From the IMG/VR virus record IMGVR_UViG_2529292908_000012: a stretch of 34,970 nucleotides of DNA; one strand, written 5' to 3'. The notes under the pieces are model-generated. The model was given only the letters and a program-made list of their open reading frames with translations, made no database searches and was not told where the DNA came from. The DNA is from a virus. Its lineage: Duplodnaviria; Heunggongvirae; Uroviricota; Caudoviricetes. Below are positions 26,332 through 32,568 of this stretch, piece by piece; position 1 is the first letter of the stretch, and every line of letters begins with the position of its first letter. Both the position numbers and the translations under genes were made by a program.

Positions 26332-26625
26332 TTAATTACACAGTCGCATATCCTGAAGTAACACATCTATAGCTAACTTCACAGCGAGATCATCCAATTC
26401 ATCATGGTGAAGCACTCGGATCATTCCCGCAATAGCATCTGCTGAAATAGCTTCCCCAGTAGCAATAACCTCAAGCAACGACACCCCTAGAATTTCGACT
26501 ACCCGCTGGTGCAACACACCAAATTCCCCTTCGATTAACATGCAATCACCCATAACAATCAGCCTTTCCCCCTTGAAAATATCACGCGGATACCACAAAA
26601 ATAAAATATTTTTGTTATCAGTCAT
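26332..26625 (-). CDS. 97-aa hypothetical protein, convergent with cI, in the cI-N interval
   Basis: ORF occupying the position where lambda carries rexAB, but on the opposite strand; no family recognised. Confidence 0.5.
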   Translation of the reverse strand: MTDNKNILFLWYPRDIFKGERLIVMGDCMLIEGEFGVLHQRVVEILGVSLLEVIATGEAISADAIAGMIRVLHHDELDDLAVKLAIDVLLQDMRLCN

Positions 26626-26885: not shown

Positions 26886-27191
26886 ATGGTAACCATAATC
26901 TGGAAAGAATCCAAAGGTACGGCAAAAAGCCGCTATAAAGCTCGCAGGGAAGAACTTATTGCAGAGCGGCGCAGTAGTGAAAGACTGACACGGAAGATTG
27001 CGCTAAAGATCTCTGGTTGCGTCGGAGCAGACAAAGCAGTATCACTCGGAAGCCTTCGCTGCAAGAAGGCAGAAGAAGTCGAGAGTAAACAGAACCGTAT
27101 TTACTACCGCAAACCACGCAGTGAAATGGGTGTGACTTGCTCAGGCCGCCAGAAACAACGCGGAAAATCAATTCCGGCTTATTACGATTGA
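26886..27191 (+). CDS. N: N-like transcription antiterminator
   Basis: Arg-rich N-terminus (SRYKARREELIAERR) and C-terminal YRKPRSEMGVTCSGRQKQRGKSIP resembling lambda N (..YSKPGERGITCSGRQKIKGKSIP) as recalled; SD aaggag 7 nt upstream. Confidence 0.75.
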   Translation: MVTIIWKESKGTAKSRYKARREELIAERRSSERLTRKIALKISGCVGADKAVSLGSLRCKKAEEVESKQNRIYYRKPRSEMGVTCSGRQKQRGKSIPAYYD

Positions 27192-27198
27192 GGTTAAT

Positions 27199-27481
27199 GA
27201 TGAAGTTCAAATTGAACGATGAAGTTAAATGGTCAAGCTCATCAAACGGTGTAACGAAGGTAAAAATCGGGTTTATCGTCGAGGTGATTCCTCCTGGTGT
27301 CAACGTAAAAAAATTCGAACTAGGCCGTCTGCTAGATGCACCTGGCCTTCCGAGGAAAGAAGAGAGCTATATAGTTTGTGTAGGTTCAAGACCCGGATCT
27401 CGTGCCAAGCCAAAATATTACTGGCCGCGAGTTAATAACCTGCGTCGATTACAACAAAAAACTTGCGCCCTTAAAACTTGA
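27199..27481 (+). CDS. Hypothetical early-left accessory protein
   Basis: ORF starting MMKFKLNDEV with SD gagg upstream; AT-rich. Confidence 0.45.
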
Positions 27482-27618
27482 AATTCTTCAGGCCGCCGGA
27501 AAAATGCAGCTTAAACTGGACGAATTCATCGACTGTATGGATGAAATGAATAAAGCAGTTCAGAAGCTTAAAGAGCTGACCGCCTGATATTAATAAATTG
27601 CAACTACCGGAGTTAACT

Positions 27619-27978
27619 ATGAATGAAACAGAACTGAAGCACATTATCGCCCTGCTTCTGGAAGATGCCAGACAGGTTTATCGACTTAGCCCAAATTCCG
27701 CAACGCAGGAACGCATCCGGATAGCGGAAACAGCACTGAAACAGGACAATGGAAACGGCATATCCAAATTTAGCGCCGCCAGTGAAAATGAAGTAATAGA
27801 AATAAACAGCAATATCAGCGACAGTTGCGTCGCTTACAGCCACCAAATAATTCGTGTAAGTGCAAGAATAATGGAAGTGATGGCAAGTGAGCTTGAAAAG
27901 AACAACATCAAGCCCACTGATTGTTGTTTAAGAACCGTAATGAACGTTATTTATTACTCGATGTTCCGAAGTCGCTAA
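27619..27978 (+). CDS. Hypothetical early-left accessory protein
   Basis: ORF starting MNETELKHIIALLLEDA with SD ggag 7 nt upstream. Confidence 0.5.
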   Translation: MNETELKHIIALLLEDARQVYRLSPNSATQERIRIAETALKQDNGNGISKFSAASENEVIEINSNISDSCVAYSHQIIRVSARIMEVMASELEKNNIKPTDCCLRTVMNVIYYSMFRSR

Positions 27979-28156
27979 CAGCGTCGAGTTTTTCATTAAA
28001 AAATGATTCAAATGCATCGTAAAATACGGCAATAGCACCGCCCTTATCTACCGCGGCAGGAACTGCCTTTTGAGGTATATCTTTCTCCGTAAATTGTGTG
28101 TTGTAAGTATCGACAGCCAGCCGCATCAGAAACATCACTTTTTCTTCTTGTGTCAT
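27947..28156 (-). CDS. 69-aa hypothetical protein encoded antisense to the pL operon
   Basis: Strong SD (aaggagag) 7 nt upstream of ATG; 3' end overlaps 27619..27978 convergently by 32 nt. Confidence 0.5.
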   Translation of the reverse strand: MTQEEKVMFLMRLAVDTYNTQFTEKDIPQKAVPAAVDKGGAIAVFYDAFESFFNEKLDAVSDFGTSSNK

Positions 28157-28612
28157 AAATTCACTCTCCTTACGGGGTTTGTAGTTGAGGAGTTCTCCAC
28201 GGGTGAGGTGGAGATCGTGCGCCGGACACGGGTGAGTTCCTGCACTCTCAGTTTACTGAACAGACATTACCCTGAAAGCCAGGGTACTACACGAAAGCGC
28301 GAGGCGAAGACTCTTTCCCATAGAAGGATTGTCGTTAGATTTCTTCGACCGTGCGCTTCCGGTTGTGAATAACAACATTGCTGTGTGTAACCCTTGGCGG
28401 ATATCGGTTTGCCGATTGCTGATGTCCGCCCTTTTTAAAGTGAATTTTGTGATGCGGTGAATGCGGCTATGCGCACGCGGAACAGTTAAACCGACAGGAT
28501 GTCACGGAAAGTCATCGTCCCCTGACCCGGCGTTAGTTGTTAACTGGTTAACGTCACCTGGAGGCACCAGGCACCGCATCAACAAAGTTCATTTGTGAAA
28601 ATGGAGATAATT

Positions 28613-28834
28613 ATGATTGCTCATCACTTCGGAACTGATGAAATACCACGTCAGTGCGTGACGCCTGGCGATTATGTTCTTCATGAAGGTCGGACATATA
28701 TCGCTTCAGCAAACAATATTGAAAAGAGAAAACTCTATATTCGTAACTTCACAACAAAAACATGCATTACCGACTGCATGATTAAAGTTTTCATCGGGCG
28801 CGATGGCTTACCCGTAAAAGCAGCGTCGTTGTGA
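28613..28834 (+). CDS. Hypothetical early-left accessory protein
   Basis: [24 protein letters not shown].. with SD ggag 7 nt upstream. Confidence 0.45.
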
Positions 28835-28917
28835 CGAGTAATAAAATACACCTTCCATATCTGTAACAGACAAGCCGAAATAAAACCGCATTAATTATCA
28901 ATCACGGAAAAATCAAA

Positions 28918-29304
28918 ATGAAAGAACTTGCGCAAAATGAAATATTTTCCAAAACCAGTCCTGATGCAATAAATGAACTCAAAGAAATTGCAGAACGCAT
29001 CAGTAAAATATGCAAAGAATACAAAATCGACTTTGTATTTTCTTTTTCAGTGCTTACAGAAGTTGGAAATAACGAATATAAGGACAGTCGTTTTGTTTTA
29101 TGTGGGTTAAATGGCAAAACACCAAGCCCATATATTCATGCTGCACGTGAAGTTGTCAGAAGCAACATTGGAGTACAACAAATCCATACACTTGCACAGG
29201 CTCTTGAGTTTGCAAGAGAAAATTCTGAGTGCGACTGCCCTGAATGCCAGCACGAAAAGGGAAAAACAACTCACAAAACAGCAAACCAGGCAACCTTCCA
29301 CTGA
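28918..29304 (+). CDS. Hypothetical protein with C-terminal Cys/His cluster (CDCPECQHEKG)
   Basis: 128-aa ORF in the AT-rich early-left region. Confidence 0.5.
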   Translation: MKELAQNEIFSKTSPDAINELKEIAERISKICKEYKIDFVFSFSVLTEVGNNEYKDSRFVLCGLNGKTPSPYIHAAREVVRSNIGVQQIHTLAQALEFARENSECDCPECQHEKGKTTHKTANQATFH

Positions 29305-29411: not shown

Positions 29412-31484
29412 ATGAGCGCTGATAAACAGACTTTTGCACTACACTGCGAAGCAAAAAACGATAAAGTCAGAAAACGCCTTGGCATCAAAGGCGGTTTTTT
29501 CTGGACCGAGGCCAGAAAACTTTCTGTCGCAGTTTCCCGCTGCATTGCAGCCATGGACGATGCAGGCTACGACGAGGATGATTTCAAAAAACCCGTTCGC
29601 GTAAATTTCCCCGTCGTGAATGACCTTCCACCGGAAGGCGTGTTTGATACTGAATTCTGCAACCGCTATGAAAAAGGCGGTAACGATGGCATCACCATGA
29701 TGGCTATCCCCTTCGATGACAACATCAACGGTGAAGATGCCACAACTGCTGGCGATGACAACGATAACCTGGACGGAACTATTCCGGATGATGTGGAGAA
29801 AAGCGAATCCCCGGACAGCGACGATGACTGTTCTGAGTGTGAAATTCCCGTCGCCACTCTGAGCCTTACTCATCGCTTCCTTCACCTCTTCTTATTCAGC
29901 AAAGATGAAGATGGAAAATACCGGCATCATGCCACACCAGAACAACGCAATAACGTGATCCGTATGGAGATGGACACAGAGGACAGTTACCTTCAGAGCC
30001 TGCTTACTGCTGTGCGCGCCGCGCATCATGAACTGGATAAACTGACGAACTATCACCTTAGTCGCCTGGCTGAATCTGTAGGGAAAGCATTCCCCCACTC
30101 TGCAAATCATCGCATCAGCCCGGCTGAATTCGACAAGTTCATTTCCACCTGGATGAAAACTGACTACCTTGATCAGGGCCTGCTGACAAAAGAATGGCAG
30201 AACGGAAATTATGTTTCAGGCATTACCCGTACGCCTTCCGGTGCTAACGCTGGCGGCGGAAATATTACCGATCGTGGTGAAGGATTCAAACATGATAAGA
30301 CATCACTCGCACGAGATGTAGCCACCGGCGTTCTGGCCCGTTCAATGGATGTGGATATTTATAACCTGCACCCAGCACACGCAAAACGCGTTGAAGAAAT
30401 CGTGTCAGAGAATAAGCCGCCCTTTTCTGTTTTTCGCGACAAATTTATCGCCATGCCCGGTGGGCTGGATTATTCCCGCGCCATTGTGGTGGCTTCCGTG
30501 AAAGAAGCACCAATCGGCATTGAGGCCATCCCGGCACGCGTGACTGAATATCTCAACAAAGTGTTGACCGAAACCGATCACGCTAACCCGGATCCGGAAA
30601 TCGTGGAAATTGCCTGCGGTCGCTCATCAGCACCGATGCCGCAGCGCGGAACAGCAGAAGGAAAACATGGCGATGAAGAAAAGCAACAAACATCGGACAC
30701 AATGGCTAATGAACAGGCAGCGCCTGAATCAGTGGAAGAAATTCCAGTTAAACATAATGAGGACACGCAATCACTGGAAAATGTCTCATCTGTAGAAACG
30801 AAATACCAGGAACTGAGGGAGGAACTCAATAAAGCCAGGGAAAACATCCCCCCAAAAAATCCAGTCGATGCCGACAAATTACTGGCTGCCTCGCGTGGAG
30901 AATTCGTTGAAGGCATCAGTAACCCTGCTGATCCGAAGTGGGTGAAGGGGATCCAGACTCGCGACACTGAGGACCAGAATCAGCCCAAAGTGGAACAAAT
31001 TGCCCCAGAAGCGGGACAAAACAGCCCGGATACGCAACAAAACGGGCCAGAAGAGCAACAGCCAGGGCCAGTAATGCAACAGGAAGTGGAAAAGGTTTGC
31101 ACCACATGCAGTCAGAACGGTGGCGGCCATTGCCCTGACTGTGGTCCAGTAATGGGAGATGAAACTTACGCTGAAACTTTTGGAGAAAATGACGCCGCTG
31201 ATGGAGAAGACTCAGCACAAACTGAGGAGAAGATCATTCAGGAAAACTCTGTTGATGCCGCTCAGGAGGGCGAAACCGTTGTTCAGAACGAGCCAGGCAG
31301 TGATACGTCCGGCGATGACGCCAATTCTGAGCCAGTAACTCTCGACTGGAAAAGACAGCTCGTGATTGCCGCCGTCTATGGTTTGTGCGCCAACCCCGCA
31401 TGTATAGCCACAGCGCCAGCAATCCCTGATATCGCCATCATGATTGCCAACAGGCTTGAAAATTTCGAAGGTGATAAATCATGA
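29412..31484 (+). CDS. 690-aa highly acidic protein with C4 zinc ribbon, translationally coupled to gam
   Basis: Long ORF; acidic tracts ([30 protein letters not shown]); [16 protein letters not shown] at aa 563-578 (nt 31098..31145); hydrophobic C-terminal segment; stop overlaps the gam ATG. Confidence 0.8.
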
Positions 31485-31777
31485 ATGCCTGGCTTATCCC
31501 CGATCGCATTGAAGAGCAGTCATGGGCACGACACTACCAGCAAATTGCCCGTGAAGAAACTGAAGCTGAGCTGGCAGACGACCTGGAAAAAGGTCTGCCC
31601 CAACACCTGTTTGAATCGCTATGCATCGATAATCTGCAACGTCACGGGGCCAGCAAAAAAGCTATTTCCCGTGCATTTGATGACGATGTCGATTTTCAGG
31701 AACGCATGGCAGAACACATCCGCTACATGGCTGAAACCATCGCCCGTCACCAAATTAATATTGATTCAGAGGTATAA
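31481..31777 (+). CDS. gam: Gam (RecBCD inhibitor), short form
   Basis: [59 protein letters not shown] is near-identical to the lambda Gam C-terminal 98 aa as recalled. Confidence 0.9.
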
Positions 31778-31782
31778 AACGG

Positions 31783-32568
31783 ATGAGTACAGCACTCGCA
31801 ACGCTGGCAGGGAAGCTGGCTGAACGTGTCGGCATGGATTCTGTCGACCCACAGGAACTAATCACCACTCTTCGCCAGACGGCATTTAAAGGTGATGCCA
31901 GCGATGCGCAATTTATCGCATTGTTGATCGTCGCCAACCAGTACGGCCTTAATCCCTGGACGAAAGAAATTTACGCCTTCCCTGACAAGCAGAACGGCAT
32001 CGTTCCGGTGGTTGGCGTTGATGGCTGGTCCCGCATTATCAATGAAAACCAGCAGTTTGATGGCATGGACTTTGAGCAGGACAATGAGTCCTGTACATGC
32101 CGGATTTACCGCAAAGATCGCAATCACCCGATCTGCGTTACCGAGTGGATGGATGAATGTCGCCGCGCACCATTCAAAACCCGCGAAGGCAGAGAAATCA
32201 CCGGACCGTGGCAGTCGCATCCCAAACGGATGTTACGGCACAAAGCCATGATTCAGTGTGCTCGCCTGGCCTTCGGATTTGCTGGCATCTATGACAAGGA
32301 TGAAGCCGAGCGTATTGTCGAAAATACTGCATATACTACAGAACGTCAGCCGGAACGCGACATCACCCCGGTTAACGAAGAAACCATGTCGGAAATTAAC
32401 GCCCTTCTTACTTCCATGGAAAAAACGTGGGATGACGACCTGTTGCCGCTCTGTTCCCAGATTTTTCGCCGCAACATTTACACATCTTCAGAACTAACAC
32501 AGGCTGAAGCTGTGAAGGTTCTTGGATTCCTGAAACAGAAAGTCACAGAGCAGAAGGTAGCAGCATGA
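31783..32568 (+). CDS. bet: Bet (Red-beta single-strand annealing protein)
   Basis: 261-aa ORF near-identical to lambda Bet as recalled. Confidence 0.95.

Follow-up and report, generated by a model that had tools for sequence, protein, structure and literature searches.

In the early-left (pL) operon of phage lambda, a mosaic run of genes with low GC content (ral, sieB, ea10, cIII and kil) lies between N and the recombination genes, and it includes a terminator that N overrides, a division inhibitor, and one gene with expression signals of its own. Two prophages of Escherichia coli K-12 carry related arrangements, namely the kilR region of Rac (ydaG-ydaF/sieB/kilS/kilR/ydaE/racC/recE) and the dicBF operon of Qin (ydfABC-dicF-dicB-ydfD). 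The small RNA KilS of Rac was predicted from Hfq RIL-seq (in which interacting RNAs are ligated and sequenced), was verified by northern blot, is associated with Hfq, and has a mapped transcription start site (PMC8175672); processing of the dicF precursor by RNase III is likewise known (bioRxiv 10.1101/2023.04.14.536235), and expression of Rac KilR is known to block cell division (PMC12482147). Here, we analyze positions 27,199 to 29,304 of the IMG/VR virus record IMGVR_UViG_2529292908_000012, a stretch of 34,970 nucleotides (nt) that we call the window. This block of six units resembling open reading frames (ORFs) lies between an N gene of the phage 21 type and a gene for a protein of 690 amino acids (aa). 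Our analysis indicates that the block comes from a lambdoid E. coli prophage and is probably an ordinary, mosaic accessory part of its pL operon, which is antiterminated by N; small pL genes are combined there with a module made of a small RNA and a leader and with a cargo gene on the opposite strand.

Comparison with Rac, Qin and lambda

In this part of the window the plus strand corresponds to the leftward early operon, and the order is a cI-like repressor gene, N, the block, the 690-aa gene (which resembles the N-terminal part of RecE), gam and bet (Table 1). Within the window, the block is the stretch of 2.1 kb that is richest in AT, with a GC fraction of 0.428 against 0.499 for the window as a whole, and just 0.3% of all 2106-nt windows are equally low. 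A preliminary description of this DNA, made from its letters, had rightly seen an AT-rich region between N and the 690-aa gene, at the place where lambda carries ral, sieB and cIII, and our comparisons support the view that a mosaic, accessory portion of the pL operon is located there. The same description had five ORFs filling the region; there are in fact six ORF-like units (ORF1, ORF2, ORF3, ORF4, kil and ORF6), the interval 28157-28612 is non-coding, and the small RNA and the structured leader had been overlooked. Given the lack of a Pfam match for these ORFs, Ral, CIII and SieB are ruled out, and no ORF of the block matches the SieB, Ral or CIII models of Pfam, NCBIfam or PHROG at E <= 0.1.

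With the kilR region of Rac the block shares the order and the orientations of an opposite-strand gene, a small RNA that ends in a terminator, a leader, a 73-aa Kil and a RecE-type gene; the leader is nearly identical to that of Rac over its conserved parts, and Kil belongs to the same NCBIfam family. Unlike in Rac, the opposite-strand gene encodes a soluble protein of 69 aa rather than SieB, and the region upstream of it is unrelated to that of sieB. The small RNA departs from KilS in its hairpin loop and at 3 nt of its 5′ region, ydaE and racC are absent and have ORF6 in their place, and this prophage also has gam, bet and exo.

The likeness to the dicBF operon of Qin lies in homologous intergenic DNA, which includes the upstream region of the slot that holds the opposite-strand gene, and in a terminator-type small RNA followed by a leader. 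Qin-like prophages found in viral contigs even hold homologs of ORF4 in the same slot. In contrast to Qin, Kil rather than DicB is the inhibitor encoded downstream, the small RNA has a 5′ region of the KilS type instead of the DicF type, the ftsZ-pairing loop of DicF (RF00039) is not conserved in the RNA of the window, and a segment of ~90 nt upstream of dicF is missing. As for lambda, the block has the same location between N and the recombination genes and the same mosaic, low-GC character, a terminator that we infer to be overridden by N, a division inhibitor, and one candidate for a gene with its own expression signals. It departs from lambda in that its Kil is of the KilR type rather than the lambda Kil type, and in that the gene proposed to be expressed independently is on the opposite strand.

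A KilS-type small RNA and a structured leader upstream of kil

The gap between ORF4 and kil (28157-28612) is 456 nt long, has a GC fraction of 0.498 and contains no conserved ORF. It is homologous to the kilS-kilR DNA of E. coli K-12 (in Rac, between sieB and kilR) and to the ydfC-dicF-dicB DNA of Qin. A 100-aa plus-strand ORF that extends into it (28070-28372) was rejected because indels among the relatives break its frame.

Within the gap lies a predicted small RNA composed of a single-stranded 5′ region (AAUAACAACAUUGCUGUGUGUAACCC), a GC-rich terminator hairpin of 13 bp (28396-28430) and a U5 tract, with a computed fold of -30.6 kcal/mol (z -3.2). It is identical to K-12 KilS (b4833) at 77 of 102 aligned positions (75%) and keeps the 5′ region AAUAAC-ACAUUGCUGUGUGUA relative to KilS; identity to DicF reaches 62% over the hairpin part. 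The small RNA is 177 nt upstream of kil, a distance matched by the dicF-dicB and kilS-kilR spacing of K-12, and among relatives the terminator is separated from the leader motif by 105-128 nt. Across the family the terminator stem changes in sequence and stays paired, as judged by inspection of the variants rather than by a formal count. In a restricted test of complementarity to the ftsZ initiation region, DicF served as the positive control (-30.9 kcal/mol, with 1.8% of shuffles as good) and KilS gave no signal above shuffles. Since the complementarity of the window RNA to ftsZ does not rise above shuffles either, unlike that of DicF, we file this RNA with KilS and claim no target for it. 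Folding of whole-length duplexes with ftsZ was uninformative, and the pairing of KilS with yncL that RIL-seq suggests is partly retained in the window RNA at a level that is not significant. By homology, then, the small RNA is a KilS-type member of the KilS/DicF family, and the name DicF is not warranted.

It is informative to place this RNA among its relatives, which we surveyed in viral contigs picked through the conserved leader motif. The 5′ regions of the family come in three types, that of DicF, that of KilS and another (CAACAACCCAUGUUGAUUACC), in combination with several hairpin loops. The window RNA joins a KilS-type 5′ region to a loop of its own; the loci surveyed, L147 and L129 among them, include some in which a KilS-type 5′ region is joined to the ftsZ-pairing hairpin loop of DicF. 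Rac KilS and Qin DicF look like variants of a single mosaic family of terminator-derived small RNAs, in which 5′ regions and loops appear to be exchangeable.

The leader that follows the small RNA is predicted to be highly structured, with a minimum free energy of -65.6 kcal/mol (z -3.64) that none of 200 shuffles equals. It has in common with STnc100 (RF02076) the core GGUGAAU, a hairpin, GUCACCNGGAGGCACCNGGCACC, the GGUG/CACC closing stem and covariation, and it differs in scoring below the gathering threshold of that model and in being one of a subclass, the kil/dicB leader. Among 58 aligned sequences, canonical STnc100 copies included, 30 have G:C and 28 have U:A at one pair of the hairpin, and at one pair of the outer stem 22 have C:G, 22 have U:A and 4 have A:U. 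The first ORF downstream of the 102 copies found in viral contigs is DicB-type in ~42 and Kil-type in ~19. The leader core is also present upstream of terB in P1-like phages (phage P7; L044, 1501-1616), and further in phage D6, Klebsiella phages and Aeromonas phage AP1, so that phages from other genera have it too. The core travels widely as a structured module, independent of kil. A canonical STnc100 copy occurs elsewhere in the window (18531-18757, minus strand; 78 bits against a gathering score of 47), and the prophage therefore has two diverged elements of the STnc100 type. A link between PasD and STnc100 (bioRxiv 10.64898/2026.05.13.724894) was considered and set aside, as it concerns the late region and not the kil-leader locus.

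Beyond the leader lies kil. Its product scores 154.9 bits with NCBIfam NF008465, "FtsZ inhibitor protein", for which the cutoff is 92, and aligns through residues 1-72 with positions 1-72 of the 73 in that profile; it also matches phrog_294 with an expect value (E) of 8e-36. It is the only ORF of the block to exceed an NCBIfam cutoff. An alternative in-frame ATG is present at 28601. By analogy with its family, Kil is the sole small pL gene product of the block with an assignable known activity, the inhibition of FtsZ-dependent division. Hence, the preliminary statement that the ORFs belong to no recognizable family was mistaken for 28613-28834, which is kil, while ORF2 proves to be a remnant (see below).

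An opposite-strand gene in a slot with variable cargo

The preliminary description had rightly observed a minus-strand gene, ORF4, with a strong Shine-Dalgarno (SD) sequence and a convergent overlap with a plus-strand gene. The SD sequence is AAGGAG, at a distance of 9 nt from the ATG, and 32 nt of ORF4 are shared with the 3′ end of ORF3. All 40 related loci have an intact frame, and the first 15 residues do not vary, the changes in 4 of their codons being synonymous; relatives in Qin-like prophages from viral contigs have an identity of only 46-53%. The family is confined to enterobacterial prophages and is tiny, with 6 matches among 1.8 billion cluster representatives, where an exhaustive phmmer search returned nothing but the protein's own small family plus two repeat-protein matches that are probably spurious. 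The protein is acidic, with an isoelectric point of 4.5, and has no hydrophobic or membrane segment by the Kyte-Doolittle scale (maximum 19-residue mean 0.99); its AlphaFold2 model is a two-helix hairpin of low confidence, with a predicted local distance difference test score (pLDDT) of 64. ORF4 is deleted in the Shiga toxin (Stx) phages 75/02 and POCJ13. Taken together, sequence conservation identifies ORF4 as a real, conserved gene, and from its position, which is that of sieB in Rac, a role that benefits the host or the lysogen is the most likely one. In a protein database, ORF4 shares a 90%-identity cluster with 73-aa Kil proteins, one of which is the representative; the two proteins are unrelated, and the shared cluster looks like an artefact of database clustering.

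The conservation of frames was assessed on homologs taken from more than 40 related loci, with the ratio of nonsynonymous to synonymous changes (pN/pS) counted wherever at least 5 substitutions were available. No homolog, whether of ORF1, ORF3, ORF4, ORF6 or any other, has an internal stop, and pN/pS is 0.05-0.11 for Kil, 0.18-0.5 for ORF4, 0.2-0.64 for ORF6 and 0.5-0.8 for ORF3. The preliminary description had staked its finding on the frames being conserved in related prophages; in the absence of internal stops and with pN/pS below 1, this test does not refute it.

The DNA upstream of ORF4 has a distribution of its own. About 100 nt of it are ~90% conserved in Qin-like prophages in which the ORF4 homolog itself is ~50% identical, and in related prophages the same region, with its SD sequence, is found ahead of at least four unrelated small ORFs, all at the same SD distance (Table 1). 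It also persists without any cargo ORF in Qin of K-12 and in phage Tritos. Slot architecture and spacing agree among the loci L036, L047, L063, L071, L166 and L167, where the cargos are those of phrog_2605, phrog_10348, phrog_18692 and a 91-aa relative, and phrog_7249. Downstream of the slot, all these loci have the terminator of the small RNA, followed at fixed distances by the leader and by DicB or Kil. ORF4 and the small RNA of the window lie back-to-back; in Rac, sieB occupies the same slot in the same orientation, divergent from kilS. The relatives' version of the candidate promoter (TTTTCA, 17 nt, TAAACT) matches the consensus at 8 of 12 positions. A direct repeat, CACGGGTGAG, is present within the upstream region at 28198-28207 and 28227-28236, 29 nt apart; its first copy coincides with the loop and the 3′ arm of the CTCCAC/GTGGAG hairpin, and the repeat might be a protein-binding site or an RNA element. 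Variable cargo behind conserved expression signals is what one expects of a moron slot, and the sequence comparison supports this interpretation of the ORF4 locus. Of the preliminary proposal of a moron with its own promoter, the exchange of cargo at a fixed slot and the conserved SD region fit the first half; for the second there is a weak candidate, conserved in relatives, that falls below the threshold of the promoter scan.

The other plus-strand genes of the block

Four ORFs of the block (ORF1, ORF3, ORF4 and ORF6) belong to PHROG families that all carry the label unknown function, and none of the four has a match in Pfam, NCBIfam, PADLOC or sequence searches of the PDB. The profile searches that the preliminary description had called for thus put a name to Kil and placed these four in PHROG families, without a Pfam, NCBIfam or PADLOC assignment for them. 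Likewise, none of 8 proteins matched any model of PADLOC-DB v2 at E <= 0.1, and searches of the literature with the protein accessions and PHROG numbers found nothing. The suggestion that the region holds genes for superinfection exclusion or anti-defense consequently finds no footing in these databases, and ORF4 does not have a hydrophobic segment.

ORF1 has intact homologs of 84-88 aa with 56-97% identity in viral contigs, and further ones in Cronobacter, Pectobacterium, Pantoea and Pluralibacter, with 26 invariant positions; tblastn against the GenBank phage collection gave no match. Its AlphaFold2 model is a small beta-barrel of the SH3/Tudor-like kind (pLDDT 83.5). The last ~9 residues are encoded by junction DNA, and the homologs end differently. 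ORF2, which overlaps it, covers only profile positions 183-229 of 229 of phrog_2539, and between its residues 16-61 and the last 46 aa (residues 192-237) of a protein of 237 aa from phage PhiR5_2 the identity is 96%. The DNA alignment is unrelated up to about 27450 and near-identical beyond, with a sharp junction, and the GTG start has no SD sequence before it. Because ORF2 matches only the end of the 237-aa gene and the junction at ~27450 is sharp, the ORF1 segment has replaced the 5′ four-fifths of that gene; ORF2 is its dead 3′ remnant. In the identical genome of E. coli FORC_069 (L003, 3803-3988), the NCBI annotation pipeline PGAP annotates the remnant ORF2 and omits the overlapping 93-aa ORF1. 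Judged by conservation, ORF1 is better supported as a gene than ORF2, despite that annotation.

ORF3 encodes a conserved, helical protein. Over 36 aa at its C-terminal end it has 50-53% identity with the C-terminus of a 201-aa protein that overlaps the ORF4 homolog in Qin-like prophages. ORF6 is restricted to E. coli, has a C-terminal CxCxxC motif and homologs down to 58% identity, and shows no similarity to RacC or YdaE, the products of the genes at its position in Rac.

Surrounding features and distribution

The 690-aa protein (29412-31484, plus strand) matches positions 1-598 of 877 of the NF007259 profile with 740 bits against a cutoff of 1269, and a Pfam Exonuc_VIII match falls within residues 55-197. 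The match covers only the N-terminal ~600 positions of RecE/exonuclease VIII, and the protein therefore seems to be without the C-terminal nuclease part. The gene is upstream of a complete gam-bet-exo set. Between the repressor and N, where lambda has rexAB, there is a second opposite-strand ORF (26332-26625, minus strand; 97 aa); its residues 30-94 match phrog_3946, and the PGAP version of it is 69 aa long. The window also contains a sok antitoxin RNA (20321-20495, minus strand, 110 bits).

E. coli FORC_069, NCCP15648 and other strains have identical DNA in their chromosomes, and from 27448 onward a version with 97-99% identity is present in phage PhiR5_2 and in O104:H4 strains. Of 5426 complete E. 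coli genomes, 65-75 carry the ORF4 allele, each as a single copy. Phages in GenBank already contain near-identical DNA, the genes of which are labeled "hypothetical protein".

Table 1. Features of the block, its flanks and the alternative cargo genes of the slot (positions are those of the window; EHEC, enterohemorrhagic E. coli)
Feature	Position	Strand	Description
cI-like repressor	25471-26178		
N, phage-21 type	26886-27191		phrog_271, Pfam N_peptide
ORF1	27200-27481	+	93 aa; phrog_11941, E 3.9e-45, residues 1-87 of 93
ORF2 remnant	27402-27587	+	annotated as 61 aa; homologous part about 27450-27587; phrog_2539
ORF3	27619-27978	+	119 aa; phrog_2982, E 8e-78, residues 1-119 of 119
ORF4	27947-28156	-	69 aa; phrog_2605, E 9e-45, residues 1-69 of 69
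ORF4 upstream region	28157-28278	-	SD 28171-28166; hairpin CUCCAC-N7-GUGGAG 28213-28195; candidate promoter
Candidate ORF4 promoter	-35 28278-28273; -10 28255-28250	-	CTTTCA and TAAACT, 17-nt spacer, 7/12 match
KilS-type small RNA	28347-28436	+	homology to K-12 KilS b4833; 5′ end inferred from K-12 KilS only
kil leader, STnc100-like	28437-28612	+	Rfam STnc100 sub-threshold; closed by a long-range stem of ~22 bp
kil	28613-28834	+	KilR-family FtsZ/cell-division inhibitor, 73 aa; NF008465, phrog_294, PGAP kil
ORF6	28918-29304	+	128 aa; phrog_2016, E 2e-78, residues 1-128 of 128
gam	31481-31777		
bet	31783-32568		
Alternative cargo			77 aa; phrog_10348; EHEC prophage PPompW
Alternative cargo			92 aa; phrog_18692
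Alternative cargo			91 aa; remote relative of the phrog_18692 protein, E 2.6e-6
Alternative cargo			73 aa; phrog_7249

Discussion

The gene content, the homologies, the conservation of frames, the folds and covariation of the RNAs, the variability of the slot cargo and the origin of the ORF2 remnant were read directly from the comparisons above; the model that follows draws on the known biology of lambda pL and N, Rac KilS and Qin DicF. In the lysogen, pL would be repressed and the ORF4 cargo gene would be transcribed from its own weak candidate promoter, which would make ORF4 an independently transcribed moron, expressed while pL is off. Without N, plus-strand transcripts that arrive from upstream would stop at the hairpin and yield the small RNA. 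Upon induction, polymerase modified by N would pass the hairpin and continue across the leader to kil, ORF6 and the genes for recombination, and this read-through from pL would converge on the ORF4 transcript and oppose it. The long closing stem of the leader may provide a point at which processing or translation of the toxic kil is controlled.

Several results weigh against this picture of the block as an accessory pL segment with a KilS-type RNA, a kil leader and a separately expressed cargo gene. No consensus-grade sigma-70 promoter was detected on the minus strand before ORF4, where the best candidate is below threshold with 7 of 12 positions matched, and the 3′ side of ORF4 has no intrinsic terminator, only an 11-bp hairpin without a U run. 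Both RNA assignments score below the Rfam gathering thresholds, with 29.2 bits (E 2e-4; threshold 48) for the small RNA against the DicF model RF00039 at 28382-28431, and 31 bits (E 6e-5; threshold 47) for the leader against STnc100 at 28433-28627. In the restricted test, the duplex of the small RNA with the ftsZ initiation region reached -25.5 kcal/mol, and 24% of shuffles were as good. Furthermore, the region upstream of ORF4 could be kept for a role on the plus strand, for instance in the processing of a small-RNA precursor, or it could be young recombinant DNA, given that its divergence of ~10% is like that of the first 45 nt of ORF4.

A bolder version of the model would take the ~100 nt upstream of ORF4 (candidate promoter, 5′ untranslated region with a hairpin, and SD sequence) as a reusable cassette that drives a series of rapidly exchanged small acidic proteins (those of phrog_2605, phrog_10348, phrog_18692 and the 91-aa relative, and phrog_7249; the analog in Rac would be sieB). 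The slot would then be an undescribed hotspot of conflict genes, expressed in the lysogen, coupled to the division-inhibitor module, and switched off by convergent transcription from pL at induction. We offer this as a tentative proposal, and the balance of the evidence leaves it rather doubtful.

One can also imagine that ORF4 and the other ORFs of the slot are not functional proteins, and that what matters is the minus-strand transcript, which would act as an antisense RNA or as a convergent brake on pL read-through into kil or dicB and would affect the processing of the small RNA. The upstream region is, after all, more conserved than the cargo and is kept without cargo in phage Tritos and in K-12 Qin, a division inhibitor always accompanies the slot, and the RNase III processing of the dicF precursor cited above fits such a role. 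Set against this are the purifying selection on ORF4, with its pN/pS range and the 4 changes in its first 15 codons that are synonymous only, the constant SD distance of all cargos, and the full-length match of three alternative cargos to PHROG families; as a replacement for a protein function, the transcript seems to us an unlikely explanation, and the two roles of the slot could coexist. It is similarly improbable that ORF4 is a superinfection-exclusion or anti-defense protein, a functional analog of SieB. Its slot and orientation are those of sieB in Rac, cargo turnover among unrelated small proteins is fast, as expected of conflict genes, and the GC content of the block is low, but position is the sole basis for the idea: ORF4 has no PADLOC, Pfam or NCBIfam match, its low-confidence structural model is uninformative, and it has no membrane segment, unlike SieB, which is a membrane protein.

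That the block is merely decaying prophage DNA, with selection on kil alone and short ORFs that persist because the prophage is young, is in our view very hard to credit. Some of the evidence does have the look of decay, namely the dead remnant ORF2, the junction-derived C-terminus of ORF1, the relaxed pN/pS of ORF3 and the loss of ORF4 from Stx phages 75/02 and POCJ13. Yet the same genes are present in the inducible or sequenced phages PhiR5_2 and phiSTEC1589-Stx1c, ORF1 is conserved across genera of the Enterobacterales with its 26 invariant positions, and the homologs of ORF1, ORF3, ORF4 and ORF6 are without a single stop.

We therefore return to the reading of the block as an ordinary accessory segment of the pL operon. 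Every element of it belongs to a known kind, and none will surprise a phage specialist. What goes beyond routine annotation is modest: the comparisons suggest a shared expression region with exchangeable cargo beside a DicF/KilS RNA, and a mosaic family of such RNAs. About 1% of complete E. coli genomes have the region, among them those of the O104:H4 outbreak lineage, and Stx phages have it too. It now gains a usable annotation: kil has a name, positions are assigned to the KilS-type RNA and to the leader, the 61-aa remnant is exposed and the 93-aa gene that PGAP omits is recovered. The cargo slot provides a short list of small prophage proteins for exclusion and anti-defense screens, and the mosaic make-up of the DicF/KilS family bears on how the small RNAs of prophages acquire new targets.

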